Origin: Leucoraja ocellata
Lineage: Eukaryota
Assembly (NCBI GenBank): GCA_036785375.1
Contig: JAWMAR010000182.1
Coordinates: forward strand, 806,001-870,000
Length of the DNA stretch: 64,000 nt
Reading direction: 5' to 3'
In this document: positions 12,729 to 51,904 of the stretch, piece by piece
How the letters are laid out: every line of letters begins with the position of its first letter
Position numbering within the stretch: position 1 is the first letter of the stretch
The notes under the pieces: model-generated
Database searches by the model: none
Seen by the model: the letters and a program-made list of their open reading frames with translations, nothing else
Told to the model about the DNA's origin: nothing
Program-made: the position numbers and the translations under genes

Positions 12729-13797
12729 ATTAGAATTAGAATTAGAATTAGATCCTTTATTTGTCATTCAGACCTTACGGTCTGAACGAAATGCCGTTAC
12801 CTGCAGCCATACATATAATAATAATCAACAGAACAGACAGTAAACACAAATTAACATCCACCACAGTGAGTCCACCAAGCACCCCTCACTGTGATGGAGG
12901 CAAAAATCTTAGGGCTGCTGTCTCTCCCCTCCTCTTCTCCCTCTGCGCTGAGGCGATACCCCACGGGGCGATGGCAAGTCAGTCCCGCGGCTCACCGAGC
13001 TCTGAGAACGGGCCGGTTCAAACTCCGCGTCCCGGGGTGGTCGAAGCTGCCGCCCTCCAGTCCAGCTGACGCAGCTGTTGACGATGTCGTCCACTGGCCT
13101 GCGGCCGAACCCCGGACTCAGGCCGCCGCCGCCAGAACGCCATCCCAGCCACCGGAGCACCATTACAGCCCCGAGCCGGGTCGCCCTCACTTGATCGCCG
13201 TTCCACCCTCTAGCCAGGCCGCCCTCACGGAAGCGTCTCAGCCCCGCACCAGCCCGCCCTCACGGGAGCGCCTTTTCCCTCGAGCTGGGCCGCCCTCACG
13301 GGAGCGCCGTTACCCTCGAGCCAGGCCGCCCTCACGGGAGCGCCATTACCCTCGAGCCGGGCCGCCCTCACGGGAACGCCGTTATCCTCGAGCCAGGCCG
13401 CCCTCACGGGAGCTCTGTTACCCTCGAGCCAGGCCGCCCTCACGGGAGAGTCTCAGCCCCTCACGGGAGCGCCGTTACCCTCGAGCCGGGCCGCCCTCAC
13501 GGGAGCGTCTCAGCCCCTCACGGGAGCGAGCCCAGGGCGAGTCCTGACAGGCTCTGCCTCCGGAGCCTCGAGGTCGCCAGCTCCGCCATTAGGCCTCAGC
13601 ACAGACGGAGACAGAGGGGGGATACAACAAGAAAGTCACATTCCCCCGAAGGGAGAGACAGAAAGCCCTGTTTCAACCCCCCACCCCCCCCAAAACTTAG
13701 CTAAACAAGACGAAAAAAACAACACAAAAAAGTAAAAACAAATGGACTGCAGGCGAGCTGCAGCCGCAGCCGTTCACCAGCACCGCCACTTCCGGAA
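12729..13797 (-). mobile_element. GC-rich non-coding retroposon (5' TTCCGGAAGTGGCGG; 3' GACAAATAAA plus (CTAATT)n tail)
   Basis: Microsatellite tail at 12729-12752 and an AATAAA on the minus strand. Shares blocks with 49780-50250 and 55880-56710. Confidence 0.6.
13215..13530. repeat. 36-bp GC-rich minisatellite
   Basis: Unit CCCTCACGGGAGCGCCGTTACCCTCGAGCCAGGCCG, roughly 8-9 imperfect copies. It explains the RERRYPRAGPPS repeats in ORF 12891-13547. Confidence 0.9.
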
Positions 13798-26730: not shown

Positions 26731-27224
26731 CACTTTACTGACCTTGTGAGATTGATATCTCCAAAATAGTGTAAGGGTCTATACAAATGCAAATTTATCT
26801 TTTAAGTAGCTTTTTGTTAAATGGAATTGATGACATTTCCATTGCGGTACATCGTCTGACAGATATCTTTTGAAATTTGTGTGATTGTAGAAAGAAGAAA
26901 ACAGACATCCAGTGGAAATTGGTAATCTGTAATTCTGATCCCTACTCTAAAACAAATGATTTATGCACACAAAATGCTGGAGTAACTCAGCAGGTCAGGC
27001 AGCATCTCTGGAGAAAAGCATAGGTGATGTTTTGGGTCAGGACCTTTCTTCAGATATTTGATTTAAGCATTAAATGGGTTACAAATATTGCATCAATAGG
27101 ATCAGATATGATTGGTGCGATGGTATACGTACTCAATTTTGTTCATTCTTTCATGTAATATAGGCTTCCCAGGTAACGTTGACCTTAATTGATGTTTCAT
27201 CCTTAATCACCCATGCAAAGTAAA

Positions 27225-27536: not shown

Positions 27537-29818
27537 TAATGAACACCCTTGCAATGCATTTGCAAGCTGACATATATATATATCAAATGGATTGATGAAG
27601 CTGATATTAAGCGGGTCTTTCCCTCATCTTAGTAATCTCACCAGCTGCCATGGTCCTTATCTGGTAGCTGAGTCCATCAGACTTGATGAATTAAATCAGT
27701 AGTGGTTCTGTTAAACTACTCTTAGAGGTTAATGTCTCATACGCAGATTCCACGATCTTACTATCTTAACACAATTTTCTTATGGTGTTCAACAATAAAA
27801 GCGTGAATCCATCAGATAAATGAAAGTGATGGCTTGAAATTAGCTTCCATTCTCAGGTTTGACCTGAGATGGTGGACTACATCATGAGTATGTTTAATAA
27901 GCAAGTATTGGCTAGGGTACTACCTGTGCACTGAAGTATTTATGTTATTTGCCAATGTGCAAACACTTTGAATATATCTAAACAACCATTATGCTTTAAA
28001 AACAGTGGGACCACTGTCAGCCAACTTTACACCTCTGGTGTGCTTGTCTACTAGTCTGACAGGATATATACAAGGATGGTGAAGGAATCTGGAATAATGA
28101 ATGCCTTTATGAAGTTACTGCTTGTTTGGCCAGTGGGACAGCTCTCTTAATTTTGGCAAATGCTGGAAAAGGGGATTTCAATGGGTTGAGCTTTGCTCTG
28201 TCACAATTCAATCATGTAGTTTGATCTTAATTTTCTATTATAATTTTTTATTTTTCAAAAGAACTAATGTTGATTTGCGATAACTCAAGTCTTGCAGTCC
28301 ATTTCAGAGATCAAATTACTTTTGATCTAAGGCCATATGTAGGTTTTATTGAGTATAGATAAATTTAATTTCTAAAGAATATTATTGAACCAGTAAATCA
28401 CCTACCTCCCTTTTGAGAAGCTGATTGACCGCTACACAGTCAAAGCATTTTATGTTCTTTAAAGTATATTGTATAGTGTTATTTAAGTTTACATTCATTT
28501 AAATTGTTGTAAGAAGATAGGTTCTCAATTTCAGTGGACACCTCTGAGTGGATACTCAGACACCTCCATTACCGATGCAGTCTAGGAAAGCATTATGTTG
28601 CAGATTCCCGTTATTGGCAATTAAGCATGACAGACTAATTTACTTAACTCAACAATACAAAAATTAAGTGAAAGCACAATTACCATTGTCGAGGATTCCG
28701 TCTCCTTCTTATAATATAAATTCCAATAGATTTTATACCGTCCATTTTTACGTTGATTCATTTGTGGGACAAAGTTGAAAAGCAAGTTTTTTTTATAGTT
28801 TATTTCCAAAGCAAAGGCTTTAAAACCCATTAATTTAATCTGTTAATCTCACAAGTTGATTTTTGAATGAAAATTCATAACACTGTTGGCCTGTTACTTT
28901 GACCTTCAGTCGTGAGCCATTGGAGGCAGTGAACCGTCAGTTTTATCCGTTAGGCTCTGTGAAATTTTAATGAATTCTTGACAGCTGAACTACATAGTGA
29001 GCACACATATTTCACTTGATCTTATCACTTTAATTAAGTAGTTACCAGATCTACTTCCTTCACATTATATGGAAAAATAGACGCCTGGTTCAAATCAAGC
29101 TGCATAAAGGACACTCCAGTGGATCGAAACAATTGTCTGTTACTCTGTAATTTTCTTCTGAAGCTTCCTGAAAACAATAAATATTAAATGGATTTTTTAG
29201 CCTACACCGAACCCCTGGGATGTTTCACTTGAATATGCCAGTGTTGGGTGATGATACTCAAGTAGATTTTACAAAAAGAAAGGTAGCCACAATCAATTCT
29301 CAGCATTGAAATATTTATGTTAGTTCAGAGTGTGTGAGTAGTGGTGCTGCTGATGTGATTGCTGCTGTGAGATAGTCTCATGGTCCCATCTGTGTAAATC
29401 TTATGGCTCTGTACTCTTCAAAATGAGCTAAATTAATATGACTGGAAATGTAATATCAGAGTGAAACATATTACAAAAGAAAATCATTGGACTATTCATC
29501 AGCAGCCATTTCCTGTAAGGAGTTCAATTACACAACTGCAGCGTTTACGTGCAAAGCCTTAAGACAGTGGGACATATACAGAAGGAAAGACATTTAATAG
29601 TAAGATTAAACGAGTACTTACCAGTACGAAGTTTGATCTGTATTTTATGAGGAGTTACGATGAGGGATTACGTGAAGAACCCACCCAGCGCGCAGGCGCG
29701 GCATACTTCCAAGCAGCGGTGTGGAATCACAGATAGACACTAGTTGAAGTAAAGATAGTAAAGACCAACGAGACATTAGTCCGAATTTGATCTATATAAT
29801 GAGGGTGGGAGCGGAGGG

Positions 29819-29931
29819 CACGTAATCCCTCATCGTAACTCCTCATAAAATACAGATCAAACTTCGTACTGGTAAGTACTCGTTTAATCTTACTATTTTA
29901 CTTCGGAGTCACGTGAGTGACTACGTGAAGA
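29819..29931. repeat. DIRS internal complementary region (ICR)
   Basis: 29819-29897 is the exact reverse complement of 29596-29674 (79 bp). 29895-29931 is the exact reverse complement of 40764-40800 (37 bp). The two halves overlap at ATT. Confidence 0.95.
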
Positions 29932-30089
29932 CTTCAAAGGTCTGTGATTTCAAACCGTGTAACAGTTATATCACTCACTGCCGAAAGATCATCGAGGGAG
30001 GAAGTGGTATCTAAAGACCAACAAGTTTGTTTAGTTATAAAAGAAATGTTTATTAACTATAACAAAAAGTAGCTCCCATGGGCTTTAAA

Positions 30090-30701
30090 TCATAACTTTG
30101 CGGTTTCTAAAATGCTATCCGCAAAGACGTCCTGTTCCATCAGCGGTTTTCTGTAGAATCGTTGGAATGTCGATTCCCTTGACCATCCCGCTGCTCTGAG
30201 GATGTGGTCTAGGGGAACCTGCATCCTATCCGCCGCTGAGGTGGACGCTGCCCTGGTTGAATGGGATTTAAAAACATTTGTGTTAATCCCTGCCATGTTG
30301 AGGACCTGTTTCAACCATCTGGATAATGTCTGGCTGGTAACCCGTCCAAAAGGCTTTCTGTGGCTAACCCATAAGGCTTTCTCTCTCCCTCTAAGCGTTT
30401 GGGTAGTGTCTAAATAATGATGAAGGTGGGTCACCACACACAGCCTAGGTTCTGGAGGGTAAGCCCGGAAGATCAACGGGGAGTTTGATGTACCTGGTCT
30501 ACTTTGTTTTACCAACCCCGGCATGGTGAAAGTAATGGTATCTGGGGTGGTCACCATGTAGTTCAGATTTAGCTGATGGAGCGACTGAACCCTTTGAGCT
30601 GAGACAAGCGCCATGAGCATAAGGGTCTTATAAGTGGACTGTTCCAGGCTCAGGGATCCCACCGGAGGCCAACCTCGAAGGTGTGTCAGAACTACACTCA
30701 C
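30090..30701 (-). CDS. DIRS tyrosine recombinase, C-terminal catalytic part (after the L1 insertion)
   Basis: Catalytic residues in AQRVQSL (R), HSTR (HxxR), AGWS (W) and FQRFY (Y). Begins VSVVL, which is the TSD copy. Confidence 0.92.
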   Translation of the reverse strand: MSVVLTHLRGWPPVGSLSLEQSTYKTLMLMALVSAQRVQSLHQLNLNYMVTTPDTITFTMPGLVKQSRPGTSNSPLIFRAYPPEPRLCVVTHLHHYLDTTQTLRGREKALWVSHRKPFGRVTSQTLSRWLKQVLNMAGINTNVFKSHSTRAASTSAADRMQVPLDHILRAAGWSRESTFQRFYRKPLMEQDVFADSILETAKL

Positions 30702-30852
30702 GACTTCCGGTGGCGCTATGGAGACCTAAAGTCCAGCGCCAACCAGCTCCGACTCGAGGAAGGGAAAAAACGGGAGAAAACGGGACCTACCTGCAGCGAT
30801 CGTAATCTGAAACGGCAGCCTGCGTGACGTCATCAGGCCTGCGACTCAAGAT

Positions 30853-31866
30853 ATGTCGATACAACACTCCCCCCCCCGTGGAAGAAGAACGGGTAAAGGA
30901 AGATCCCAGACGGAAGAAGAAGGCCCTACAGAAGCCTCGGCCTCAGTTACAGTGATGGCCCAAGAAGAATTTCCAAAGAAACCCAAAGGGAGAAAATCGG
31001 AAATGGATGATCTGAGAATCTTTTTGGCTGCTGAACTGAAGATTTTTGGAGAGAAATTAGACACCTTCAAGGTAGATCTTAAAGCAGAAATACACACCAC
31101 AGTTGAACAAATGTTTGAAAACTGGAAGCGGACGAGGGAGGAAGAGGTCAAAAACCAGATGGAAGAGATGGAAACTAGACTCGTTTCGTTGGAAACAAAG
31201 GCTCAAACAGAGATGGACCCTATCCGCCACGAACTTAATCAACACAGAATAGCGATAACCGAGCTTGAGAAATGTGCGGCGACAAGTGCAGAAACAGTAA
31301 GTCAGCTTCTTATTGAAAACCAACGTCTCACAAGTATGGTGAGCAAACTAAATGATAAATGTATTGATCTGGAAGGGCGTCAAAGACGTAAGAATCTAAG
31401 AATTGTAGGGGTGAAAGAAGGAAGCGAGAGGGAAATGGGCACTCGGGATTTCGTGGCAGACCTTCTACATAAAGTCTTAAAACTGGAACACAAACCTCTA
31501 CTCGGTCGTGCCCATAGAGCACAGCGACGTCGGACGCAAGAGGTTGCCCACCCAAGACAAATAATTGTAAAAGTCCTACAAGATCATGAATTTGATGAGA
31601 TAATGAAGAAAAGTGTTCGGAGCGGTCAACTTCTTTTTGAAGGCGTGAGATTTAGCATATACCGAGATTACTCGACAGAGGTCTTCAAGAAAAGAATGCT
31701 GTTCAATGAGACCAAAAGAATATTGAAGAGTGTACCGGATTTGAAATACAGCCTACTCTATCCCGCAAGACTAAGAGTCACCTACAATTCCAATGAGTTA
31801 TTTTTTACAGACCATGAAAAAGCACTCGAATTCGCCAAGAAAGTCGGTAACACACCTCCAGACTGA
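30853..31866 (+). CDS. L1 ORF1p (coiled coil plus RRM/CTD, transposase_22-like)
   Basis: 337 aa: heptad-rich N-half, DLEGRQRRKNLRIVGVKEG, RAHR, PRQIIVK, IYRDYS, LLYPARL. Confidence 0.92.
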   Translation: MSIQHSPPRGRRTGKGRSQTEEEGPTEASASVTVMAQEEFPKKPKGRKSEMDDLRIFLAAELKIFGEKLDTFKVDLKAEIHTTVEQMFENWKRTREEEVKNQMEEMETRLVSLETKAQTEMDPIRHELNQHRIAITELEKCAATSAETVSQLLIENQRLTSMVSKLNDKCIDLEGRQRRKNLRIVGVKEGSEREMGTRDFVADLLHKVLKLEHKPLLGRAHRAQRRRTQEVAHPRQIIVKVLQDHEFDEIMKKSVRSGQLLFEGVRFSIYRDYSTEVFKKRMLFNETKRILKSVPDLKYSLLYPARLRVTYNSNELFFTDHEKALEFAKKVGNTPPD

Positions 31867-32909
31867 AGAATCTACATCACTCCTTAGGAGACATGGTCTT
31901 CGATGACCGCCAGATCTAAAAGGACCTTTAAAATTTGTTCAAGAACTTTAAAGACACTTGGAAACCGAAAATGATGGAGGACATTGGATAAAAACTGCGA
32001 TCTTTCGAGGGTTTCTCCCTCTTTTTTCTCTTTTTTTGTTTGGGCTCTTCAACGGTTACTAATCACTGCTATTATATATAAATTCATATTAAACTATATA
32101 GGTAACAACTAATACTTATTAAATATCTTTATTTCCACTAATATTATTAACATTATTAATTCTTATATAAGTTAATACGGTATAAGATGGATAACAATGA
32201 TCAACACTTAATAGTCTTTGATAAATGAAGAAAGGAATTATATAATATAGTACATAGAAAGATATGTTAGAGGTAAATTAACCTATATCATAACTAAGAT
32301 AGACGGATTTCCTTTTCTTTTTTTCGCTCTATTTTTCAATTTAAAATCATTTTGGTGGCTTGAACCTTTTTACAGGGTTACGTGTTGATACTAATAGGCA
32401 TGTGGGTATGTATACATATACATATAAGCGTATACGTAGGTAGGAGCATATATATTGTGTGGGTAGAAGTATGACTAGGTAAATAAATTTGATACTCCCA
32501 TAAGAAGTTTATTGAATGTTAAATATAATTTCCTCCCCCTTTTTCCCTTTTTTTTTTTTTTTTTTTTTTTCCTTTCCTCTTCCTCGGGCACGGAGCTGGG
32601 AATTTTTTCGTTTTACAAAGGCTACGGAAGTCCTTAGAATTCTAGCCACGTTAGTGTGGCTATCACTAACTACACCAATTGTAGATGTAGTTCTTTTTTC
32701 CTCACCCTACACTAACCAACCCTATCACTTTTCTTTCTTCAAATATTTTTCTAACTCAAGGTTTGAATGGAAAAACAAGACCAAGGCAAGGAGATATGAT
32801 CGGAAGAATGATGTATTCGAATTTAAATTCATCTATCTGAGGTTTGGGAGCAGGGTCAGATTCTATGTGTTGTCCCTTCTGCCCGGTTATAGACCACCTC
32901 AGATGCAAT

Positions 32910-35900
32910 ATGCAAGATGCTAACATGACAAGAAGGGGTCAGGGAATAACATTTTGTAGTTGGAATGTCAAGGGAATCAATGAACCAATTAAGAGAAGTA
33001 AAGTTTTGGCACACCTAAATCTAATTAAAACAGATATAATATTTCTTCAAGAGACACATCTTAAAAAGCAATCTCAACATAGACTTAAAGCTAAGTGGAT
33101 CGCCGAATCATATCATTCCTCTTTTTCCCACAAGTCAAGAGGAGTAGCAATAGTAATTCGTAAAGGAATACCTTTTGTGTCTTCTTCAATAATAGTGGAT
33201 ATGGATGGCAGATATATAATAGTGGTTGGAGAGTTAAATGGAGAAAAAGTGATCCTCCTAAATGTTTATGGGCCTAACTTCGATAACCCCACTTTCTTCA
33301 ACAAAACATTTAATAAAATTCCTGAATTTGCACAATACAAATTAATAATCGGAGGAGACTTCAATTGTACATTAGACCCATACTTAGATAGATCATCAAG
33401 GCAAAAAAAAACAAAATCCAATTCAAGTGTATTTTTAAATTCATTTATTAATACCACTAATATTAAGGATATCTGGAGAATAGAAAACCCAACCGGACGG
33501 GAATATTCATTTTATTCACCAGTACACAAATCATACTCAAGAATAGATTACTTTTTAGTTGACTCTACGTTTATTCCATTTATTTATAATTCAAAATATC
33601 ACAACATCATAATTTCAGATCACGCACCAGTAACATTTATGATTAAATTAAATGGAATGTCCGAGAAACAAACATATTGGAGACTTAACCCACAAATCTT
33701 GAACGAAAGATCATGCCAGGAATATATTACTAAACAAATCCAAATATTTTTTGAGGTAAATGACAACCCTGACACACCTGCTTCCCTTATGTGGGAGACG
33801 TTTAAAGCGTATGCTCGAGGTACATTAATCTCTGCACAAGCATTTTATAATAAAGAAAACAGGATTAAACAACAAGCACTGGAAAGTGAAATTAAGTTAC
33901 TAGATATAGAAAACGCGAGAACGCCATCTACGTTAAAACATAATAAAATTGCTGTACTGAAATATAAATTAAATAAAATGTACTCAGAACAAGTAATAAA
34001 ACTTTACCAAAAAACTAAACAATTACAGTTTGAATTTGGAGACAAACCACAAAAACTATTAGCACGCCAGTTGCGAAAAATGGAAGGGGAAAAAATAATT
34101 CATAAAATTAGAACAGAGACAGGAGAATTATTAAAAATGCCCAAAGATATAAATGATAGATTTCTACAATACTATCATAACCTTTATTCAACTAAAACGG
34201 TAGCACAACCAGAAGGAATAGCAGATTTTTTAATAAAATGTAATTTAAAAGGTTTAGATGCAAATGATAGAGAATTATTAGAAAGGGAAATTACGATAAA
34301 GGATATTGAGGAGTCAATTGGCTCTCTAAAAAATGGTAAGGCAGTAGGGCCAGATGGTCTAGGTTCAGAATTTTACAAAAAATTTCATGATTTGCTATGC
34401 CCACGCTTGCAAAGACTATATGATTATATCTACACCCAACAGAAACTCCCAGATACCTTAAATGAATCTATAATAACGCTTATTCCTAAAGCTGATAAAG
34501 ATCCGGAAGATCCGGGATCATACAGAGCAATTGCACTTCTGAATACAGACCAGAAAATACTAACTAAAATACTAGCACGTAGATTAAGTACAGTGATGAA
34601 TAAATTAATACACCCTGACCAAACAGGCTTTATTCAGAAACGGTATTCATATTATAATTTAAGAAGATTATTCAATATTATATATACCAAGAGAATTATT
34701 AATGAAGATTTAGCAATAATCTCACTTGACGCTGAAAAAGCATTTGATCAGGTCGAATGGCCTTATTTATTTTCGGTGATGGAAAAGATGCAGCTAGGGG
34801 AGAAATTTTGCACATGGATAAAACTGCTATACACAAATCCTACGGCCAGAATACTTACCAACCAAAGACTGTCATCTAAATTCAGTCTATCTAGAGGGTG
34901 TAGACAAGGATGCCCGTTATCTCCATTACTATTTGCACTTGCAATTGAGCCACTTGCAGAAAGAATTAGGGGGCATCCGGAAATATATGGGTATAACAGT
35001 AAAGACACAGTGAATAAAATTTCTCTATATGCAGATGACGTATTAATTTACATCACAAAACCAGAAATTAGTATCCCAAACCTATTAAAACTAATAAACC
35101 AATTCGGCGCACTTTCAGGATACAGAATAAATTGGAATAAAAGTGAAATTATGCCAATAAGAGAACATAATAAACAGATAATACAACAATTCCCATTTAA
35201 AGTAGTAAATGAAAAATTTAAATATCTAGGTATCTATGTAACTAAGATATATACATCATTATTTAAAGCAAATTTCCCCCCATTATTGAATAAATTACAT
35301 AAGAATATCCAATACTGGAAAACATTACCTATTTCAATGGTTGGTAAAATTAATGCCATAAAAATGATTTTTTTACCGCAAATATTATACCTTTTTCAGA
35401 CGATTCCGATATACCTGGCAAAAAACTTCTTTAAAAAATTGGACTCTATTGTTAATGATTTTATCTGGGATTATAAAAATCATAGGATAAGCAAAAGACA
35501 CTTGTGTAAATCAAAAAATAATGGAGGCTTGGTTTTACCTAACTTTTTGTTTTATTTCTGGGCAGTTAATATTAAAAATATGAACTTCTGGTTGGGAGAA
35601 ATAGACCAGCAACCAGACTGGTTAAAAATGGAAAGGGAAGATTGTATGCCTTATGATATTGGTTCGATATTATTTGCTACGTCTAAATTAAACAAGAAAA
35701 TTTATAGGGAAAACCCTATAATATTTAGTGCTATAAAAATTTGGAAACAATTAAAAAAGACATTAAAATTAGATAACTTATCTCTTTTTCTTCCAATTGT
35801 GAATAATTCATTGTTTAAGCCTTCATGTTTAGACGGGGGTTTTACACAATGGAAGAATAATGGAATTAAAAATATAGGACACCTTTACAAGGAAGGCTCT

Positions 35901-36725
35901 TTTTTGACATTTCAGGAGTTGCAACAGACTTATGGACTTCGAGGAAATGATTATTTCAGATATCTTCAACTCAGAGATTATGTTAAATCGAATTCTAAAA
36001 ATTTTCGAAATAGAAACCCAGAGATTCTTGATGAATGTTGGAATAAGCATCCTAATACAGAAAAATTAATATCTTATATATATAATATCTTATTAGATAG
36101 TGACATTCCTTTGACGGACTTACACAGACAAGCATGGGAAAAAGAATTAAATCAGGTAATAACGAAAGACACTTGGGAAGAAAGTCTACAACACATACAT
36201 CAATGTTCACTAAACGCGAGACATTCTCTAATACAATTTAAAGTAATACATAGGTTACATTACGCCAAAACAAAATTACATAAAATTTTTCAACATATCT
36301 CACCTATATGTGATAAATGTCAACATTTAGAAGCTACGTTATCGCACATGTTTACAAACTGTACAAAAATTAAAAAATTCTGGGTAAATATTTTTAGTAT
36401 AATATCCAAAGTAACCAACACACAACTGGAACCCAACTCAAAATTAATAATACTCGGAATATTAGAATCAAATCAAACACTTAGAATAACACAAAGAAAC
36501 TTTATCGATTACAGTTTAATAACAGGAAAAAAATTAATCCTAAAATTTTGGAAAGGCCCTACGGCCCCCACAATCAAAATGTGGATTATAGAAATGACGG
36601 AGACCTTAAACATGGAAAGAATCAGATTTTCCCTGTTGGATAAACAGGAATTATTCGTTGGAACATGGTCTCCTTTTATTGATTACTTAAAGGGTCAGAA
36701 TAGTTCAGCACAGGAACCTGACTAG
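32910..36725 (+). CDS. L1 ORF2p (APE endonuclease, RT, C-terminal Cys/His motif)
   Basis: SWNVKG, LQETH, GGDFN, SRIDY, SDH; GPDG, LDAEKAFD, RQGCPLSP, LYADD; CDKC..SHMFTNC. The frame is open from 32844. ATG 32910 (or 32925) is my preferred start because it lies just before the EN motif. Confidence 0.95.
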   Translation: MQDANMTRRGQGITFCSWNVKGINEPIKRSKVLAHLNLIKTDIIFLQETHLKKQSQHRLKAKWIAESYHSSFSHKSRGVAIVIRKGIPFVSSSIIVDMDGRYIIVVGELNGEKVILLNVYGPNFDNPTFFNKTFNKIPEFAQYKLIIGGDFNCTLDPYLDRSSRQKKTKSNSSVFLNSFINTTNIKDIWRIENPTGREYSFYSPVHKSYSRIDYFLVDSTFIPFIYNSKYHNIIISDHAPVTFMIKLNGMSEKQTYWRLNPQILNERSCQEYITKQIQIFFEVNDNPDTPASLMWETFKAYARGTLISAQAFYNKENRIKQQALESEIKLLDIENARTPSTLKHNKIAVLKYKLNKMYSEQVIKLYQKTKQLQFEFGDKPQKLLARQLRKMEGEKIIHKIRTETGELLKMPKDINDRFLQYYHNLYSTKTVAQPEGIADFLIKCNLKGLDANDRELLEREITIKDIEESIGSLKNGKAVGPDGLGSEFYKKFHDLLCPRLQRLYDYIYTQQKLPDTLNESIITLIPKADKDPEDPGSYRAIALLNTDQKILTKILARRLSTVMNKLIHPDQTGFIQKRYSYYNLRRLFNIIYTKRIINEDLAIISLDAEKAFDQVEWPYLFSVMEKMQLGEKFCTWIKLLYTNPTARILTNQRLSSKFSLSRGCRQGCPLSPLLFALAIEPLAERIRGHPEIYGYNSKDTVNKISLYADDVLIYITKPEISIPNLLKLINQFGALSGYRINWNKSEIMPIREHNKQIIQQFPFKVVNEKFKYLGIYVTKIYTSLFKANFPPLLNKLHKNIQYWKTLPISMVGKINAIKMIFLPQILYLFQTIPIYLAKNFFKKLDSIVNDFIWDYKNHRISKRHLCKSKNNGGLVLPNFLFYFWAVNIKNMNFWLGEIDQQPDWLKMEREDCMPYDIGSILFATSKLNKKIYRENPIIFSAIKIWKQLKKTLKLDNLSLFLPIVNNSLFKPSCLDGGFTQWKNNGIKNIGHLYKEGSFLTFQELQQTYGLRGNDYFRYLQLRDYVKSNSKNFRNRNPEILDECWNKHPNTEKLISYIYNILLDSDIPLTDLHRQAWEKELNQVITKDTWEESLQHIHQCSLNARHSLIQFKVIHRLHYAKTKLHKIFQHISPICDKCQHLEATLSHMFTNCTKIKKFWVNIFSIISKVTNTQLEPNSKLIILGILESNQTLRITQRNFIDYSLITGKKLILKFWKGPTAPTIKMWIIEMTETLNMERIRFSLLDKQELFVGTWSPFIDYLKGQNSSAQEPD

Positions 36726-37068
36726 CACCCGGACTAAAGATTGGATGAAATGCTATACTTCGAAATGTACGAACATATCTCGAATGATGTTTTTAAACTT
36801 TAACAAATTTTTCCATTCTTCTTCAATTACCTCTTTCACTCCTCTTCCTTTTTTTATTTTTTTTTTATTTCAGTTTTCTTTTTCCTTTTTCCCTCTTTCT
36901 ATTTCATCTATCCCTTTAGTCCTATCTAGTTATAAAAAAAAAACGAAGAAAAATGCAAAAAGTATTGGAGACAATGTAATAATAACTGACAATATTATCA
37001 ATTTAAAAATGATGTAACAGTAATGATGTAATAGATTATGTACCTATCTCCAATAATAAAAAATTAAA

Positions 37069-37108
<40 letters not shown>

Positions 37109-37116
37109 ACACTCAC

Positions 37117-37515
37117 ATCCCACATGTGGGTGTATCTAGGTGTAGGGGGTTTGGTATTAAAGATCCCCTTAAGGAGTCTGATGACCAGAGGGTGGGATCC
37201 CACACTATGCTGTCCTATCGGCATGAGGTATGCGGACAGTGCGCTCCGAGCCGTATTGATGGCACTGTAGCTCATCTTGAGGTCATGGTGCAGGTGGGCC
37301 AGGAACTCCAGCACATCCGAGATCGAAGCCGTCTTGTAGGATGTCCCTGCCTCCAGACAGTACTGTTCCCATTTCCTGATGAAGGTCAGGTACTGTTTTT
37401 TGGTGGAAACTCGCAGGGATGCCGACATGGTGGTGATTGTTCTGTCTGATAACCCCAATCCCCGGTAAGGCCTGTTCAAAATCTGGAAACCAGGAGTTTC
37501 AATTTTTGGTGGCAT
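37117..37515 (-). CDS. DIRS tyrosine recombinase, N-terminal core-binding part (before the L1 insertion)
   Basis: 133 codons (…STKKQY…W…VLEFL…SYSAINTARSALS…HPLVIRLLKG…PRYTHMWD) that join in frame to 30701, giving 336 aa. Confidence 0.9.
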
Positions 37516-39410
37516 GGATGGCTAATGCCAGTTACCGGGTGAGTCAATAATTGGGGGTGGCTATGAAGGACCATAGGTGTCTCTACCACCATGTCGTGGA
37601 ACATTGGGAACCATGGTTGGGTAGGCCAGTCGGGCACGACCAGAATGCCAGAGGCTGAGTCTGCCTGAATTTTCTGGAGTACCCGACTGATGAGGCAGAA
37701 GGGAGGGAAAGCATAGAAAAAGAAATTTCCCCAATCCAGCGTGAAGGCATCTACCGCTGCTGCCTCTGGGTCTGGTTCCCAAGCCACATACATGGGTAGT
37801 TGGTGATTTAACCTAGACGCAAACAAATCTATATCTGGCGTACCATATTGCTTAACAATTTTAGCAAATAATTTTGGGTCCAACATCCATTCGATGTTGT
37901 CGTTGAATTTTCGTGACCTGGTGTCCGCCACTAAATTTAGCTTGCCTGGTAAATAGGCAGCTGATAGCCAAATATGTCTCTCGACACACCATTGCCAGAT
38001 TATAGCAGTTAATTTGTCGCATGATACTGATTTTATGCCACCCATGTGCTGGATATAAGATACTGCCGTAGTGTTGTCGATCATAATCCTAACATGCACG
38101 TGCCGCATATCAGATGCATATGCTTTTAGCCCATAAAAGGCGGCGAGCATTTCCAAAAAGTTAATGCCCAGTGATTGTAGTAGCGATGCCTCTGAGTTAG
38201 TCCATCTGCCACCTGTGCTGTCTATGGAGTTAGTAGCTCCCCAGCCTAAAGCACTGGCATCCGTTGCAATGGTTATGTTAGGATTGGTTACGGCGATAGG
38301 ACTGTGACTGTGCCAAATATTATCAACCCACCACTGAAGTTCTGATTTGGCTTCAGCGGGTAAATCCATTTTGCGATCATAATGCCCCCTGTTAAGGCGT
38401 AATGCATGAGTCCTTGCTCTTTGTAGATTTTGATAATGCAAGGGCCCATGTTGGGCAGCCGGGAATGCTGCTACTATAGAGCCAATAACTCTGGCTACAT
38501 GCCGTATTCTAGGTTGCGGTGTAGCAATTAAATGGCTACAAGCTTCAATGAGTGAAACTGTTTTGTCTCTGGGCAGAGTGACAGTCATGTGAATCGTGTC
38601 AATAGTGAAGCCTAGGTAATCCATGTTAGTAGTAGGCTCCAATATTGATTTATCTGGGTGAAGGATAAAACCCAAAGTTTCAAGGAGTTGTTTAGTGGCT
38701 AACACTCCTGCGACAGCTTGTTCCCGTGTTCTTCCTAATATGAGAACATCGTCCAGATAGGCCACGACTAAATGTTTTAGTTCTCTCAATTTCTTCATGG
38801 CCACTTTAAGAATTTTCGTAAATAGTCTGGGAGCTGTCGTTAACCCATTGGGCAAAGCTCGGTACTGCCATAGCTGGCCCCTCCAGATAAATTTCAGATA
38901 TTTAAAGTAATCTTTGTGAATGGGTACCAAATAGTAAGCATCTTTGATATCTATGCTTGCCATGTAGTATCCCTTGGAGATCAGTTGTCTGGCAGTGACA
39001 AATGTCTCCATTTTGAAATGTTGATACTCAACAGACTGATTAAGTGACGTCAGATCAATAATAATGCGACGGCCACCATCTTTTTTGGTTTTGAGAAAAA
39101 TATTTGATACAAATTCTTGCGGCTCGTGTGTGGTCATTTCTATGATGCCTTTAGCCACGAGCCGATCAAGTTCAGCTTGTCCTTCTACCTTCTCAACTGC
39201 CGAGGGAAGGAACACCCTTTGGGGCATGTGCTGAACTGGCGGTTCTACGCCTGGTTTGAACTCAATTTTGTATCCACTAATACTGTTGAGTATAAACTTA
39301 TTGTTAGTAAGGGAGCACCAAACATGCTTGAAGAACCTCAAACGTCCCCCTGTTAATACTACACCCTTTGTCTGTGTATGTTGACAGGAACCAGACCCAC
39401 CTACCTCCAT
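37476..39410 (-). CDS. DIRS pol: reverse transcriptase, RNase H and adenine-methyltransferase-like domain
   Basis: RT: IDIKDAY, LPNGLTTAP, YLDD. RNase H: TDAS, INFLE, IDNTT, ADTRSR. MT-like: IDLFAS, DAF..DW, YAFPPF, VVPDWPTQPWF. 644 aa uninterrupted. Confidence 0.95.
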   Translation of the reverse strand: MEVGGSGSCQHTQTKGVVLTGGRLRFFKHVWCSLTNNKFILNSISGYKIEFKPGVEPPVQHMPQRVFLPSAVEKVEGQAELDRLVAKGIIEMTTHEPQEFVSNIFLKTKKDGGRRIIIDLTSLNQSVEYQHFKMETFVTARQLISKGYYMASIDIKDAYYLVPIHKDYFKYLKFIWRGQLWQYRALPNGLTTAPRLFTKILKVAMKKLRELKHLVVAYLDDVLILGRTREQAVAGVLATKQLLETLGFILHPDKSILEPTTNMDYLGFTIDTIHMTVTLPRDKTVSLIEACSHLIATPQPRIRHVARVIGSIVAAFPAAQHGPLHYQNLQRARTHALRLNRGHYDRKMDLPAEAKSELQWWVDNIWHSHSPIAVTNPNITIATDASALGWGATNSIDSTGGRWTNSEASLLQSLGINFLEMLAAFYGLKAYASDMRHVHVRIMIDNTTAVSYIQHMGGIKSVSCDKLTAIIWQWCVERHIWLSAAYLPGKLNLVADTRSRKFNDNIEWMLDPKLFAKIVKQYGTPDIDLFASRLNHQLPMYVAWEPDPEAAAVDAFTLDWGNFFFYAFPPFCLISRVLQKIQADSASGILVVPDWPTQPWFPMFHDMVVETPMVLHSHPQLLTHPVTGISHPCHQKLKLLVSRF

Positions 39411-39412
39411 GT

Positions 39413-40624
39413 TTACTTGTGGGGTCGTTTTCGGTGGGTCTGGCCCAAGGTTGTCCGTGTTGGTGCTGCGGTGGGGCGGCGCATCTTCCCACGGCTCCGC
39501 CCTGGGCCCCGCTCTAAAAAAGAGCTCTGGGGGTAGTGGGAGGCGGTCACCAGGCTTTCACCAGCTCGGTATCTACTGGTGGCTGCCGAGGCGTGCGGCC
39601 AACTGGGTGTCTTCACCCTGCTCGGTCCTGGCCCTGCCCTCATGAGGCCTACTGGTTTTGCCGCCTCTTCCAACTCCTTGAGCCTTTTGGCCAGATCTGC
39701 ACCAAATAGCAGCGCCTCTCGTTCGGGCGCTGGAGCTTTACAGAGGCCGGCATATGTTGGGTTGAGGGCAGGCCTGATGTTGTCCCGCCGTAGGCTATTT
39801 AGCTCATAGGTGGTGCTGCACATCAGTGCGAGCGCATCCTGTTGGGGTATGGTCAGGTCTTCATCCCCAACGGACCGAGCAAAGGCGGTGACGGCTGCTG
39901 AGTGGAGCTTCAGGACTCGCTGCATCTTGACTTCCTGAGCCCTGATTTGCTGCCCCAGCTGGTTCCAGATCTGCCCATTGACCGTTTTGACCCTCAGCGC
40001 CTCGCAATTTTCTGGCGCTGTGTAATTGTCAAGGGCCTGCTGGACAGCCTTGTCCTGCAGCGGGTTGTTGGACAGCCTGTTTATGGTGGCCGCCATTCTG
40101 GGTGGCAATACCATCCCAGTTGTTGGGGGCGCTGCATATCGGCCCACTACACCCAGTAGCTCTTCTTCTGGCACGCCCGGCATGCTGATGGTATCCTCCG
40201 CCTGCCCTTGGGATAGGCCAGCCCAGTCCTGGCCTCCCTTACTGCCCTCGAACATAGAGGGTACAGAAGGGTGTGGAGAGGAGGAGGCCAAAGCCCGTCC
40301 TCCTGGGAGATGCCGCATCTCCTCGTTGATCATTCGCTCTAGGAGCTGCCTCATGCAGCTGATCCGAGCGTCTCCCCTTTTCGGTGGGGGAGAGTGTTCC
40401 CGTTCCTCCGATTCATCGGAGGACACCGGCCGGTCGGTCTTATGAGTCGCCTTCCTCCCTGTGCGGGGCGTTGAAATCTGCAGCACTGGGGGCGGCTCGG
40501 TGTCGGGTGAGCGGGAGCGTTGAAAAGGCTCCTCCGCTGCGAGAGGCTGCCGTCCAGCTATGGACCCGTCCTCGGGTGGAGTTGGGCAGGCAGTCCTCCT
40601 GGCTGGTCGCTTGCGAGAGGCCAT
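39413..40624 (-). CDS. DIRS ORF1 (gag-like)
   Basis: 403-aa intact ORF, first after the 5' terminus, stopping 2 nt before the pol ATG. Contains PENC..VN..IW, LNSLRR..IRP and LFG motifs typical of DIRS ORF1 (recalled). Confidence 0.8.
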   Translation of the reverse strand: MASRKRPARRTACPTPPEDGSIAGRQPLAAEEPFQRSRSPDTEPPPVLQISTPRTGRKATHKTDRPVSSDESEEREHSPPPKRGDARISCMRQLLERMINEEMRHLPGGRALASSSPHPSVPSMFEGSKGGQDWAGLSQGQAEDTISMPGVPEEELLGVVGRYAAPPTTGMVLPPRMAATINRLSNNPLQDKAVQQALDNYTAPENCEALRVKTVNGQIWNQLGQQIRAQEVKMQRVLKLHSAAVTAFARSVGDEDLTIPQQDALALMCSTTYELNSLRRDNIRPALNPTYAGLCKAPAPEREALLFGADLAKRLKELEEAAKPVGLMRAGPGPSRVKTPSWPHASAATSRYRAGESLVTASHYPQSSFLERGPGRSRGKMRRPTAAPTRTTLGQTHRKRPHK

Positions 40625-42779
40625 AATTCTCTCTGGAGCGACTCTGTAACAAAAAAGGCACTTACCTGAGGTCTTGTCTTTATGCTGCAGCTGGAGAGCC
40701 TGGCTCCAGCTGCTGCCGCTGTTGCACTGCTGACGTAATGCCGCGCCTGCGCGCTGGGTGGGTTCTTCACGTAGTCACTCACGTGACTCCGAAGTAAAAT
40801 TAAGTATCCAGAGCAAAACAATGCTTGGATCTTTCAAATTCCACATGCATTTTCAAAGTATAAACTGAAAGATATAAATGAAACTTTTACAATATTGTGT
40901 AAGACCTTTTCCTGAGTATTTGACCTGAAAGCAATGACTGTCTACTTACAAGAACTACATGGGAAATCTTCACAAAGACAAAAATAACATTGCATGATTT
41001 CAGTATTTTAATAATCATACAATACTGCAAAAATATGACACATTTATGAGGCTTTTGAATATCATTGTTTAAGCTCTACAGCATAACTGCTGCCATTTTT
41101 ATTCAATCGTTAATACAGAAAGATGCCAAATATAATAATAATGAAAATATCCTTTTCATTTTATTTATTGCTTACATAGATATCACTGGCATTTCTTAGT
41201 TCTGCTGATTACTACCCATTTGTTCAATTGAACTCATAATGCACATTAAGGACTGAGTGACATCTATCATTTGTTTTTCAAGCAATCTCCATTTCCAATT
41301 GTTAATTATCTGTAAAATGGATGACAGATTGTCTTGCATTCAGCCATAGCGCAGTGTGACACTCTCACCTGTGGTTACTTTCTCCTTATATTGCTCTGTT
41401 TTACATTTCAAGCAATCACATTAAAGGGCAGCAGGTGTTTCACTAACATGCCTATTGTTGCAGCTTCCCATTCTCGGTCAGTACAGGTGGATATCAGTGA
41501 CACTTGCTTTATTAATTCCCATATCACAGGCCTAAATCTGAAATGTGGATAGGATCAGCTTCTGAAACATGCAACATGAGACTGAAGTCTCTTGTCAGGG
41601 CTGCAGGGCAGCCACTAGTAGCAAACAAGGTACTGGTCCTGAAGTGTTTCATTAGTGAGTCAAGGGGATCGCATTATCCCTCAGGTAAAGATATCTTACA
41701 TATTAATGAAGGCACTGGCTTAATAAAGTGATGTGGTTGACAGATAAGAGTAAGAAAGTGCACCCAGTCAGATATTTGCTTTGCAAGTGTCAAATTGTTA
41801 ACACTGATGTGTCAATCAATGTTTCTGATCAGATGTTTTTTCTTCTGGAAGGATAAGATTTAACAGGCTTAGAACATATATATACCCACAGTAAAGCAAG
41901 ACTCCTGCATGTCTTTGAATGCAATCATCAGAATGGTTCTGAAACACAAACAATACATGGTAAAAGCTTTAATTGAATGTTATGCAGAATTCTAGTATTG
42001 TAGACTCCCCCCCCCCCCCCTCTCCCACCCCACCACCTCCTGTCCAACCTTTGAAAGCCGATTCATTTCACTTGACACTGCAATTGGGAAAGCAAAGCTA
42101 TAGATGCAAAGCTGACTGTTTAAACACAATGTGTTCTGTATGTTTATTTATAATTAGGCCCTTGGTAGTAAATCATTATGGAATTATCCATAATGTAAGA
42201 CTTAATTGGAAGCGTATTCAGAGTATGTCAAGCACCACCCCTAACCCTATCCTGCACTACTTCTTTATGGAGAGTAACAGACTGACAAAATCAAGGGATT
42301 ATCAGAATATCACATTGTCAATGTCCCAATCAATGTAAAGCTGATCAAATTGTTTGTTGACATGACTATTCTTCCTTGGTTTAAACAGGAAAGATATTAA
42401 TACAGGTCAAATTTCCCCATACACAACAAAACCAGAAGGAAAGGTGAAATTGTCATTCTATGTGTATTGATGTCTATAGATCTAATCTATAATCGTATTT
42501 AAATAATAGTTACATACTATGTGCATTATTTATCTTAATCATTTAGTCTAGACTCGTCATTTTCAGCATATAAAAATGAATTATACCAGTCTGCTGAGTT
42601 AACATTCATAATTGGTTTTGTGATTTATTAATGCCACAAATTCCTTTTAATTTAATTTCTCATATCCTGAAAAATTACATATATAATAAAATAATCTGGT
42701 ATTATTTGACATGGCATCTGAATTCAAAAGACTGATACACAGGAAGGTCAAGACCAAAGTGCAAGGCTGCAAAATGCAA

Positions 42780-43190: not shown

Positions 43191-44520
43191 TACTTCCCCC
43201 CTCTCTTTTTTACTTCCCCTCTTCCCAGTGTTCCACCTGGATGGACACCTATTTGTGCCTTTTCCCAGCCCCCTGTGCTTCCAGATTCTGATTGACTTTG
43301 GCAGAATGCTTACAATGAGTCACTCAACCTCTGAAGATGGACACAAAATGCTGGAGTAACTCTGCAGCAACTCTGGATAGAAGGAATGGATGATTTATTG
43401 AGTCGAGATCCTTCTTCAGACACTTCACACGTCCTTTGTCTCTTCAATTACTTCCGTTTTCCAGACCACCACTCCCTCATCTTTACTATTAAAACCATTC
43501 TCTCTCATTCAATCTTTCCTCTTGTCAACACCTGATCATGGGCGAATATGAAGTCATGAATTGCATATTGAAGGCAAACATGGAGCCCAGCGACTAATCG
43601 GATGCCATTTTAATTCTACATAACATTAATTTGTATGCTTAATAAATGGATAGTTTAATCTGTATTTCCTCATTTGTAAACTTTTTATGCTCCACCATTT
43701 GTCCACATCAAAATTTAGCAGACTGTTATGTTGACCAAAATAATGAAAGCATTTTGTGTTAGTATCTGTTTCAACGTGTCCTATTTATTTTAGACAGAAG
43801 CAGCTGTCTTTATACATCTGCATTAACATATGAAAACTATTAAAATATATATTTTTACCTTTGACAACATAATCCCAGCAGCTGAAACTTAGCATCCACG
43901 TTAGGTGATTGTGTGGTTGCTTGGTAAAGGATTTATCTGCTCCTTAAGCTGAGGCACATCAATCAATCATATTATCAAGTGCCAAGCTTAAGGGCTTTAT
44001 GCTTCGTAATATTTTGCAGTTTCATTTGACTTTCCATGATGAGTCTATGACAGGAATTTAACTCCATAGTTGCATTTATGGCATAATCGTGAGGATATTT
44101 CATTGACATTAAAGGTACATGTCAAAGCTGGTCAAGGCCAAATTGATTTGAGAGTAACCCAGAGGGAAATTTCTTGAAGTAAGGAATCAAGTTAGATCCT
44201 TGCTATGCAGTCTCTTATCAACAGACAGTCAACAGAAAGCAAGAATTTATATTATTTTACTCCAAATTTGTATGAGTAACATTGGGCAAATTGAATTCAG
44301 ATTCACATGTGATCTATAATTTCATTTATGTAGTCTATGACATTATAGAATACATTACATTAAATAAATCAGCACTCTATAACAGGCTTATGTGTGATAA
44401 AGAAAACCTATTTTAGCCTGTTGTGTTAATATATAAACATTTATTTTGGGTTTCAAAGCCTTCCTGTGCAATGTAAATTACCCACTGATAGTGCACACCA
44501 CTGTCGGTATAGCAGGATCT

Positions 44521-45213
44521 TTACTTACTTACTTACTGACTTACTGCCTATTATGCCTCCTGGCATGTAGGGCAGCAACGAAGGTCCTCCACTCCTGTCT
44601 GTCCTGGGTTACCTTCTGGATTTCATTTCCTCCTCTACAGTTCGACGCCAGGTGGTTTTGGGTCTCCCTCTTTTCCCTTCCGGTGTCCAGTGCAGGGCTA
44701 TTCTTGGGATGCTGTCTTGTTCTCTTCTCAGTATATGGCCAATCCAGTTCCAGTGCCTTCTCATGATGATGATGTCCATGCTCTCTTGTTGGCATTGAGC
44801 AAGGTGATCTTGGTTGGATATGGTGTTTGGCCAATATATTCGTACATTCCAAAAACCTATCCTAGTCTTATGTTTGGCATTTAGAACTTTCCTGCCAGTG
44901 GCTTCCTTTCGGCTTTCATCATTGACATTCATCCTAGCATCTGTTGATAGCCCTGGAAGTCCATCACACCCAGTAGTGTTGATTCCTTCAGTTGCTGTTT
45001 CCGTAACATATTTGTTTATACGAGACAGGGTTATTAGCCCTGTGCTGAACCTCCAACCTGGAGGACCAGTGGATCGCTCTTCGTCTCGCCTCTACCCTTC
45101 GAACTGTTCAGCATGGGAGACCCTAACAGGAGACGAATCACCCGCTGGCATAGCTCTAGGGGTCACTGAGACACACAAGCTCCCCGACCACGACAAGGTT
45201 GCAATTCAACGTG
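44521..45213 (-). mobile_element. Internally deleted RTE-clade LINE
   Basis: RTE 5' region, then an ORF start (TRIGFWNVR) fused to the C-terminus (WIGHILRR, WTPEGKRGRPKTTW, QDRQEWR). Tail is (AGTA)n. Confidence 0.8.
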
Positions 45214-50308: not shown

Positions 50309-51904
50309 CAATCCATTCAGAAAGTATTCAGACCCCTTCACTTTTTCCACATTTTGATAGATTACACTTAATCTAAGATGGATTAAATTCATTTTTTTAT
50401 CATCAATCTACACACCATACCCCATAATAGAAAAGCGAAAAAGGTGTTCAGAAATTTTTGCAAAATAATTAAAAAGTAATAACTGAAATATCACATTTAC
50501 ATAAGTATTCAGACGCTTTACTCAGTACTTTGTTGAGGCACCTTTGGCAGCGATTACAGCCTCAAGTCTTCCTGGGTATGACGCTACAAGCTTGGCACAC
50601 CTGTATTTGGGTAATTTCTCCAATTCTTCTCTGCAGATCCTCTCAAGCTCTGTCAGGTTGGATGGGGAGCGTAGATGCACAGCTACGTACAGGTCCCTCC
50701 AGAGATGCTTGATCGGGTTCAAGTCCGGGCTCTAGCTGGGCCACTCAAGGACATTCACAGACTTGTCACGAAGCTCCTGCATTGTCTTGGCTATGTGCTT
50801 AGGGTGGTTGAAGGTGAACCTCCGCCCCAGTCTGAGGTCCAGAATGCTCTGGAGCAAGTTTTCATGAAGAATCTCTGTACTTTGCTCCGTTCATCTTTCC
50901 CTCAATCCTGACTAGTCTCCCAGTTCCTGCCGCTGAAAAATATCCCCACAGCATGATGCTGCCACCACTATACTCTACTGTAGGTATGGTATTGGCCAGG
51001 TAATGAGCGGTGCATGGAATCCTCCAGACGTGACGCTTGGCATTCAGGCCAAAGAGTTCAAACTTGTTTTCATCAGACCAGAGAATCTTGTTTCTCATGC
51101 CTTTTGGCAAACTCCAAGCGGGCTGTCATGTGTCTTTTACTGAGGAGTGGCTTCCGTCTGGCCACTCTACCGTAAAGGCCTGATTGGTGGAGTGCTGCAG
51201 ATATAGTTGGCCTTCTGCAAGGTTCTCCCATCTCCACAGAGGAACTCTGGAGCTCTGCCAGAATGACCATTGGGTTCTTGGTCGCCTCCCTGACAAAGCC
51301 CTTCTCCCCCGATTTTCTCAGTTTGGTTGGGCTACCAGGTCTATGAAGAGTCCTGGTGGTTCCAAAATTCTTCCATTTAAGAACGTCAGAGGCCACTGTG
51401 CTCTTCGGGACATGCAATGCTGCAGAAATTGTTTTATACCCTTCCCCAGATCTGTGTCTTGACAAATCCTGTCTCGGAGGTTTATGGACAATTCCTTCGT
51501 CTTCATGGCTTGGTTTTTGCTCGGACATGCACTGTCAACTGTGGGACCTTATATGGACAGGTGTGTGCCTTTCCAAATCATGTCCAATCAATTTAATTTA
51601 ACACTGGTGGACTCCAATCAAGTTGTAGAAACATCTCAAGGATATTCAATGGAAATAGGATGAACCTAAGCTAAATTTTGAGTGTCATAGCAAAGGGTCT
51701 GAATACTTATGTAAATGTGATATTTCAGTTATTTCTTTTCAATTACTTTGCAAAAATTTCTAAACACCTGTTTTCACTTCTTTGTTCTGGGGTATTGTGT
51801 GTAGATTGATTATTAAAAAAAAAATTAATCCATTTAAAAATAAGGCTGTAAAGTAACAAAATGTGGAAAAAGTAAAGGGGTCTGAATACTTTCTGAATGC
51901 ACTG
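50309..51904 (-). mobile_element. Tc1-family DNA transposon, IR/DR type, full length but defective
   Basis: TA at 50307-50308 and 51905-51906. ~210-bp TIRs beginning CAGTGCATTCAGAAAGTATTCAGACCCC, with the AAGTATTCAGAC motif repeated at the inner TIR ends. Confidence 0.93.
50522..51506 (-). pseudogene. Tc1 transposase pseudogene
   Basis: MKTKELS, VARRKPLL, ILWSDE, GGSIMLWG, NPIKHLW and KGASTKY lie in different frames. The QQDND motif is deleted near 50805. Confidence 0.9.

Follow-up and report, generated by a model that had tools for sequence, protein, structure and literature searches.

A young DIRS1-like retrotransposon of Leucoraja ocellata with a complete L1 in its recombinase gene

How did a complete L1 retrotransposon come to lie inside the recombinase gene of a DIRS element whose other genes are open, and is such a locus anything other than an ordinary nested insertion? 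The question is raised by a stretch of 64,000 nucleotides from Leucoraja ocellata (contig JAWMAR010000182.1, positions 806,001 to 870,000, forward strand), referred to below as the window. The L1 occupies 30702-37103 on the plus strand (6.4 kb) and splits the tyrosine recombinase (YR) gene of a DIRS1-like element that runs on the minus strand from 40800 to 29596; the DIRS measures 4,790 bp with the L1 insert excluded, and the composite 11.2 kb. The locus is a recent and unusually clean nested insertion, formed by new members of two known kinds through known mechanisms. Our reading, to which we give a probability of about 85%, is that two unrelated insertions took place in succession, neither element targeting the other, and that a complete young L1 split the YR gene of a young DIRS.

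The interrupted recombinase gene

A preliminary description of this DNA, made from its letters, had reported a full-length L1 with both open reading frames (ORFs) open, a pure poly-A tail and a perfect 14-bp target site duplication (TSD), lying antisense in the DIRS YR gene, and all of these features are present in the sequence. The 5' copy of the TSD (30688-30701, plus strand) is repeated exactly in the 3' copy (37103-37116, plus strand), the last A of the tail being shared with the duplication, and the first-strand nick, 5'-TTCT/GA, falls inside the YR gene. Genome-wide matches were counted in an assembly of 3.44 Gb. The uninterrupted YR site has 480 exact matches there, against 0 for a reversed control, and 29 of 29 other DIRS loci that align across the site do so without an insert. 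On these counts the presence of an L1 within a DIRS is a real observation, and the nested insertion is not an artefact of chance matching. Each of the two L1/DIRS junctions of the composite is single in the genome, as is the left flank.

The 5' piece of the YR gene (37104-37515, minus strand) encodes an N-terminal SAM-like domain (Phage_int_SAM_4, E 6e-6); its frame enters the reversed poly-A and meets a stop at 37036, giving 159 codons with no catalytic residue among them. The catalytic domain, with its R, HSTR, W and Y, is encoded by the 3' piece (30090-30701, minus strand; Phage_integrase, E 2.5e-7), which is severed from the start, and R170, H280-x-x-R283, W306 and Y316 all belong to this piece beyond the L1. 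Because every catalytic residue lies on the far side of the L1 and the frame ends after 159 codons, the L1 demonstrably knocks out the YR of the window DIRS copy at the sequence level. The preliminary description had further held that excision of the L1 would restore a YR of 336 aa with R, HxxR, W and Y, and natural copies bear this out: uninterrupted ones have a 336-aa YR from the same ATG, its length being exactly 336 aa in 31 of 39 DIRS copies fetched. The YR of an uninterrupted copy matches Phage_integrase (E 3e-7), and R170, H280, R283, W306 and Y316 are conserved in DIRS families that are 50-71% identical, the exceptions being decayed copies; a search of the PDB with the YR gave nothing significant.

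The true start of the YR may differ from the ATG of the 336-aa frame, but the gene is split by the L1 regardless. A donor-like motif at 39407, just past the pol ATG, and an acceptor-like one near the beginning of the YR frame, at 37489, are present in 34/39 and 37/39 copies, respectively; the copies are too similar for this retention to be evidence of selection, and no joint between 39407 and 37489 is listed for RNA reads of a relative, organism B (four runs). Further splice-like motifs lie on the minus strand at 40668 and 40652 of the window, upstream of gag.

Two elements of known kinds and the order of their insertion

The left terminal repeat of the DIRS (40738-40800, minus strand) starts with ATT and is an inverted match to 29661-29704 together with 29895-29931 of the internal complementary region (ICR), while the right terminal repeat with its extension (29596-29704, minus strand) ends with ATT and is an inverted match to the left end; the paired segments 29661-29704 and 40738-40781 are 95% complementary. 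The ICR (29819-29931, minus strand) consists of segments of 37 and 79 nt that are 100% complementary to both termini and overlap at 29895-29897, the 3-nt circle junction. In copies with both ends located, ATT stands at 32/33 starts and 33/33 ends. The flanks of these 33 copies show a weak bias for A before the ATT (21/33) and for A or T after it (30/33).

As the preliminary description had stated, gag and pol are uninterrupted, with open frames of 403 aa and 644 aa. The gag-like ORF (39413-40624, minus strand, ATG at 40624) is named by its position, no Pfam family having been found for it, and pol (37476-39410, minus strand, ATG at 39410) contains a reverse transcriptase (RT) domain (RVT_1, E 3e-19) and the motifs YLDD, TDAS, DLFAS and FPPF. 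From its motifs we take one region of pol to be RNase H-like, and DLFAS and FPPF may mark a methyltransferase-like one; the Dam match in the latter region (E 0.21) is weaker than the cut-off. No residue in any frame of the window copy is private to it (gag compared with 21 copies, pol with 22).

The inverted termini and right extension, the complementary regions overlapping on 3 nt, the ATT at both ends that is single in the empty site, the absence of a target duplication, the gag, pol and YR genes, the pol with RT and YLDD, the YR with HSTR and the length of 4.8 kb make this a DIRS1-like element, a group in which pol is described as having YLDD and the YR as having HSTR (PMC3266345, in part; the words "in part" mark sources of which sections were available). 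The window copy retains R, HxxR, W and Y. Unlike the elements in the available sections of that account, however, it has its YR split by the L1, and its pol and YR overlap only briefly. Replication through cDNA that depends on the ICR has been shown for Dictyostelium DIRS-1, and a recombination model for DIRS predicts a single ATT at the empty site (PMC7192593, in part).

Such a site is found in run X4 of organism B (record 17), where a 4,083-nt contig joins the left flank up to 29595 to the right flank, which it enters at 40798. Some 1,000 bases of either flank are covered and differ from the window by about 1%; the DIRS is absent and one ATT is present. The empty site of the relative thus displays the single ATT predicted by the integration model, in agreement with the available part of PMC7192593. 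In runs X1 and X2, from organism A, the flanks match without differences and the DIRS ends are entered for only 24 nt; with a bridging threshold of 31 nt, these runs were not counted as bridging, and the left-flank contig of X1 stops at 29561. The TSD is DIRS sequence that is present once in the 480 empty sites, and the order was therefore flank, DIRS, then L1. The same order is supported by the pre-DIRS empty site in the relative and by the distances within each family, the L1 being nearer to its relatives than the DIRS is to its own. The locus is in this respect a clean relative clock, and a likely polymorphic marker.

The L1 begins with a complete 5' untranslated region (UTR) of 151 bp (30702-30852, plus strand; 57% GC, 13 CpG), whose start is the same in other copies. 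ORF1 (30853-31866, plus strand, ATG at 30853; 337 aa) matches structures of human L1 ORF1p (E 2.3e-5, residues 137-327) and gave no Pfam match at a threshold of 0.001; it is followed by an AT-rich inter-ORF region of about 1 kb with a T23 run (31867-32924, plus strand). The ORF2 frame (32841-36725, plus strand), with an endonuclease and RT (Exo_endo_phos, RVT_1) and a C-terminal Cys/His motif, has 1,294 open codons, or 1266-1286 aa depending on the start codon, and aligns from end to end with human L1 ORF2p (E 1.8e-183). A T-rich 3' UTR of about 350 bp follows, and a pure poly-A of 32 A (37072-37103, plus strand) lies 3' of an AATAAA. This copy is probably still competent.

The APE-type endonuclease, RT and Cys/His motif of ORF2, an ORF1p that matches the L1 type (defined by a coiled coil, an RNA recognition motif and a C-terminal domain), the poly-A tail, the variable duplication and the pyrimidine/purine nick site point to the L1 clade. 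A target-specific Tx1-type element was considered and rejected, the flanks and duplications varying among copies. The available sections of PMC5381506 describe long T-rich spacers in fish L1, and the window element resembles the fish/frog type presented there in its short 5' UTR, long T-rich spacer (roughly 1 kb) between the ORFs, T-rich 3' UTR with AATAAA and poly-A, ORF1p and ORF2p homologous to those of human L1, and non-specific insertion with 13-18-bp duplications. It differs from that type in its nick sites, among which TTCT is no rarer than TTTT.

In the model that we propose, recombination of a DIRS circle with an ATT in the genome would have left the element with ATT at either end. 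The L1 endonuclease would then have made a nick in the YR gene at 5'-TTCT/GA, and target-primed reverse transcription of a full-length L1 RNA would have produced the poly-A and the 14-bp duplication. For both steps the structures are observed and the mechanism is what we infer from them. The window DIRS copy would consequently be unable to integrate by itself and the DIRS family would be unaffected; the weight of the single locus is small, a single DIRS copy among at least 480 being left without its recombinase.

Three other origins were set aside. A composite element that has spread is rejected because each junction is single in the genome; for a 3' transduction of DIRS sequence by the window L1, the genome holds no second poly-A/DIRS junction; and for an alternative allele within the assembly, the left flank is single. 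It is most improbable that two abundant repeats were fused into a chimera during assembly: a mis-join would not be expected to show complete L1 ends and an exact 14-bp TSD with a nick site of the usual kind, nor to carry an L1 haplotype distinct from those of all 99 other copies that we fetched, even though both parts are high-copy and no read has been shown to span the L1/DIRS junctions.

Family youth and the landing sites of the L1

A search with the YR 3' piece returned 2,240 candidates, and the 40 that were scored were 99-100% identical. Intactness of the DIRS was assessed in the 39 best-matching copies, chosen by similarity, in which the YR frame is open in 33, pol in 25, gag in 23 and all three in 14. 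Exact matches to the L1 ends number 163 for the 5' end and 227 for the 3' end, and the L1 sample comprises 99 of the 162 other 5' ends, 39 of them ranked by similarity and 60 taken in contig order, the intact copies among the latter being counted without a motif requirement. Both frames are open in 29/39 ranked and 6/60 contig-order copies (35/99 in total). The preliminary description had presented the locus as one from which functional sequences of both families could be recovered; with so many open copies of each elsewhere (14/39 and 35/99), it is not a special source of either.

Identity to the window L1 is at least 99.5% in 18 of the 99 copies, 99-99.5% in 9, 97-99% in 23 and below 97% in 49. 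The nearest L1s differ by 4 substitutions over 6,194 bp and by 5 over 6,368 bp, and the nearest DIRS by 14 over 4,790 bp. By these distances the L1 subfamily is the younger of two very young families. The low divergence supports the proposal that both families were active very recently; their present-day activity, which had also been proposed, we infer from that same divergence. A by-product of wider interest is that two retrotransposon families of this genome have burst very recently and have many copies that are uninterrupted. For the DIRS, hundreds of copies about 99% identical resemble the burst reported for zebrafish DrDIRS1 (PMC3266345, in part).

Among the fetched loci, one (L183/L203, G000:C135:1340500-1352200) has a young DIRS followed directly by a second DIRS start in a head-to-tail junction, and adjoins an older DIRS family that is 67-75% identical. 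Three pairs of loci with common flanks (L150/L151, L166/L170 and L239/L240) are segmental duplications or uncollapsed haplotypes.

The nick site had been described as a variant of the TTTT/AA preference of L1. TTCT/GA is indeed what is seen, but it is not odd for this family. TSDs were identified for 67 of the 99 L1 copies, varying in sequence and mostly 13-18 bp long, and among the corresponding 67 nick 4-mers, in which leading A's are ambiguous against the L1 tail, TTCT is the commonest with 12 and TTTT has 10; TTCT/GA occurs 3 times. Human L1-mediated insertions, too, often lie at TTCT sites (PMC4859970, in part).

A DIRS-like 5' flank was found in 7/99 other L1 copies, two of which share flanks, leaving 6/98 independent cases. 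Three are sense and three antisense, and their sites are spread across pol, YR and the 3' region. The duplications are clean in L155, L217 and L226 but not in L212 or L239/L240, and L250 aligns over 2.2 kb only. For the background estimate, 40 stretches, each 10 kb long and about 40 kb away from an L1 copy, were tiled against the same DIRS library, which was matched by 49 of 1,600 tiles (3.1%; bootstrap 0.75-5.9%), in 6/40 stretches. With the point estimate as background, at least 6 of 98 would arise with a probability of 0.08, and across the bootstrap with one of 0.12; chance most likely accounts for the rate of L1 insertion in DIRS. When 29 other loci were chosen by their match to the L1 3' end, 8 of them overlapping the 99-copy set, the flanks differed and none was in the window DIRS family. 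At the locus of L155 (L155/L201/L202, G000:C74:821500-839500) a full-length L1, 97% identical and with both frames open, lies sense in the pol of a 94-95% DIRS with a clean duplication.

If the L1 family favoured DIRS as a landing site, in the YR gene or the ICR, it would thereby cull DIRS, and the figure of 6/98 against a 3.1% background points in this direction, as do two older L1s that start close together in the ICR (L217, G000:C59 near 9352720, and L250, G000:C625 near 694318) and a nesting bias reported for human transposable elements (PMC2836564, in part). Against these stand the probabilities of 0.08-0.12, the spread of sites, in both orientations, along pol, YR and the 3' region, the ordinary TTTT/AT nick motif that the ICR holds, and the lack of a second insertion at the window YR site among 480 empty sites, and we hold such a preference to be quite unlikely. 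An L1 aimed specifically at the window YR position was rejected on the same absence and on the varied flanks. Only slightly less doubtful is a broader proposal in which L1 lands in DIRS at about twice the chance rate with a hotspot in the ICR, on which DIRS replication depends, one retrotransposon curbs the burst of the other, and the composite could be copied by helper DIRS proteins with the L1 as cargo. The 11.2-kb composite retains all DIRS cis signals.

Several points weigh against two unrelated insertions of recently active elements. The L1/DIRS junctions were not seen in independent reads, and misassembly is formally possible; the rate of L1 in DIRS is about twice the background point estimate, which itself depends on 6/40 positive stretches, and a mild preference may exist; two of the cases lie close together in the ICR; activity is argued from low divergence; and the 39 best-scoring DIRS copies overstate the intactness and youth of their family. 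The locus is nevertheless most likely not special but an ordinary nested insertion, because uninterrupted copies of both families are found elsewhere, TTCT is the commonest nick and the other L1-in-DIRS cases do not clearly exceed background. Nested insertion is well documented in human (PMC2836564, in part), and the present locus is like the cases in the available sections of that work in having a younger element within an older one, which gives relative dates, and unlike them in that both partners are very young and otherwise lesion-free. A literature search, outside which lay most subscription papers and the repeat databases, returned no report of an L1 within a DIRS and none of these two families in cartilaginous fish.

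Transcription and the surrounding window

The preliminary description had also suggested that convergent transcription could produce double-stranded RNA (dsRNA) or PIWI-interacting RNA (piRNA). The locus would then be a silencing trap, in which read-through of the opposed elements yields dsRNA or piRNA precursors against both families. The two elements do face each other, and transcription often continues past L1 poly-A signals (PMC5381506, in part), but the DIRS-sense strand carries 13 AATAAA within the L1, with the first reached after about 230 nt of it, which makes long read-through doubtful. Moreover, the termini of DIRS-1 reportedly suffice to drive bidirectional RNA in Dictyostelium (PMC4482531, in part), and 0/209 tiles match DIRS in the surrounding 52 kb of the window. 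RNA of organism B (four runs, two studies) gives reads on 28/30 bins, mostly 95-99% alike, from bulk libraries that look unstranded, and no reads on two bins in unique flank. This is family-wide expression in a relative and says nothing specific to the locus. The suggestion finds no locus-specific support and we consider it very unlikely; the interpretation offered in the preliminary description is, overall, partly supported.

No host gene is evident among the window ORFs of at least 150 aa. Open frames at 601-1167, 1623-2144, 5393-5938, 44609-45091 and 51073-51534 presumably represent older fragments, which we take to resemble long interspersed elements or Tc1-type elements. A GC-rich tandem repeat at 12870-13735 has long open frames on both strands, and a short interspersed repeat is present in two copies, at 26963-27059 and 43337-43425, that are 71-94% alike.

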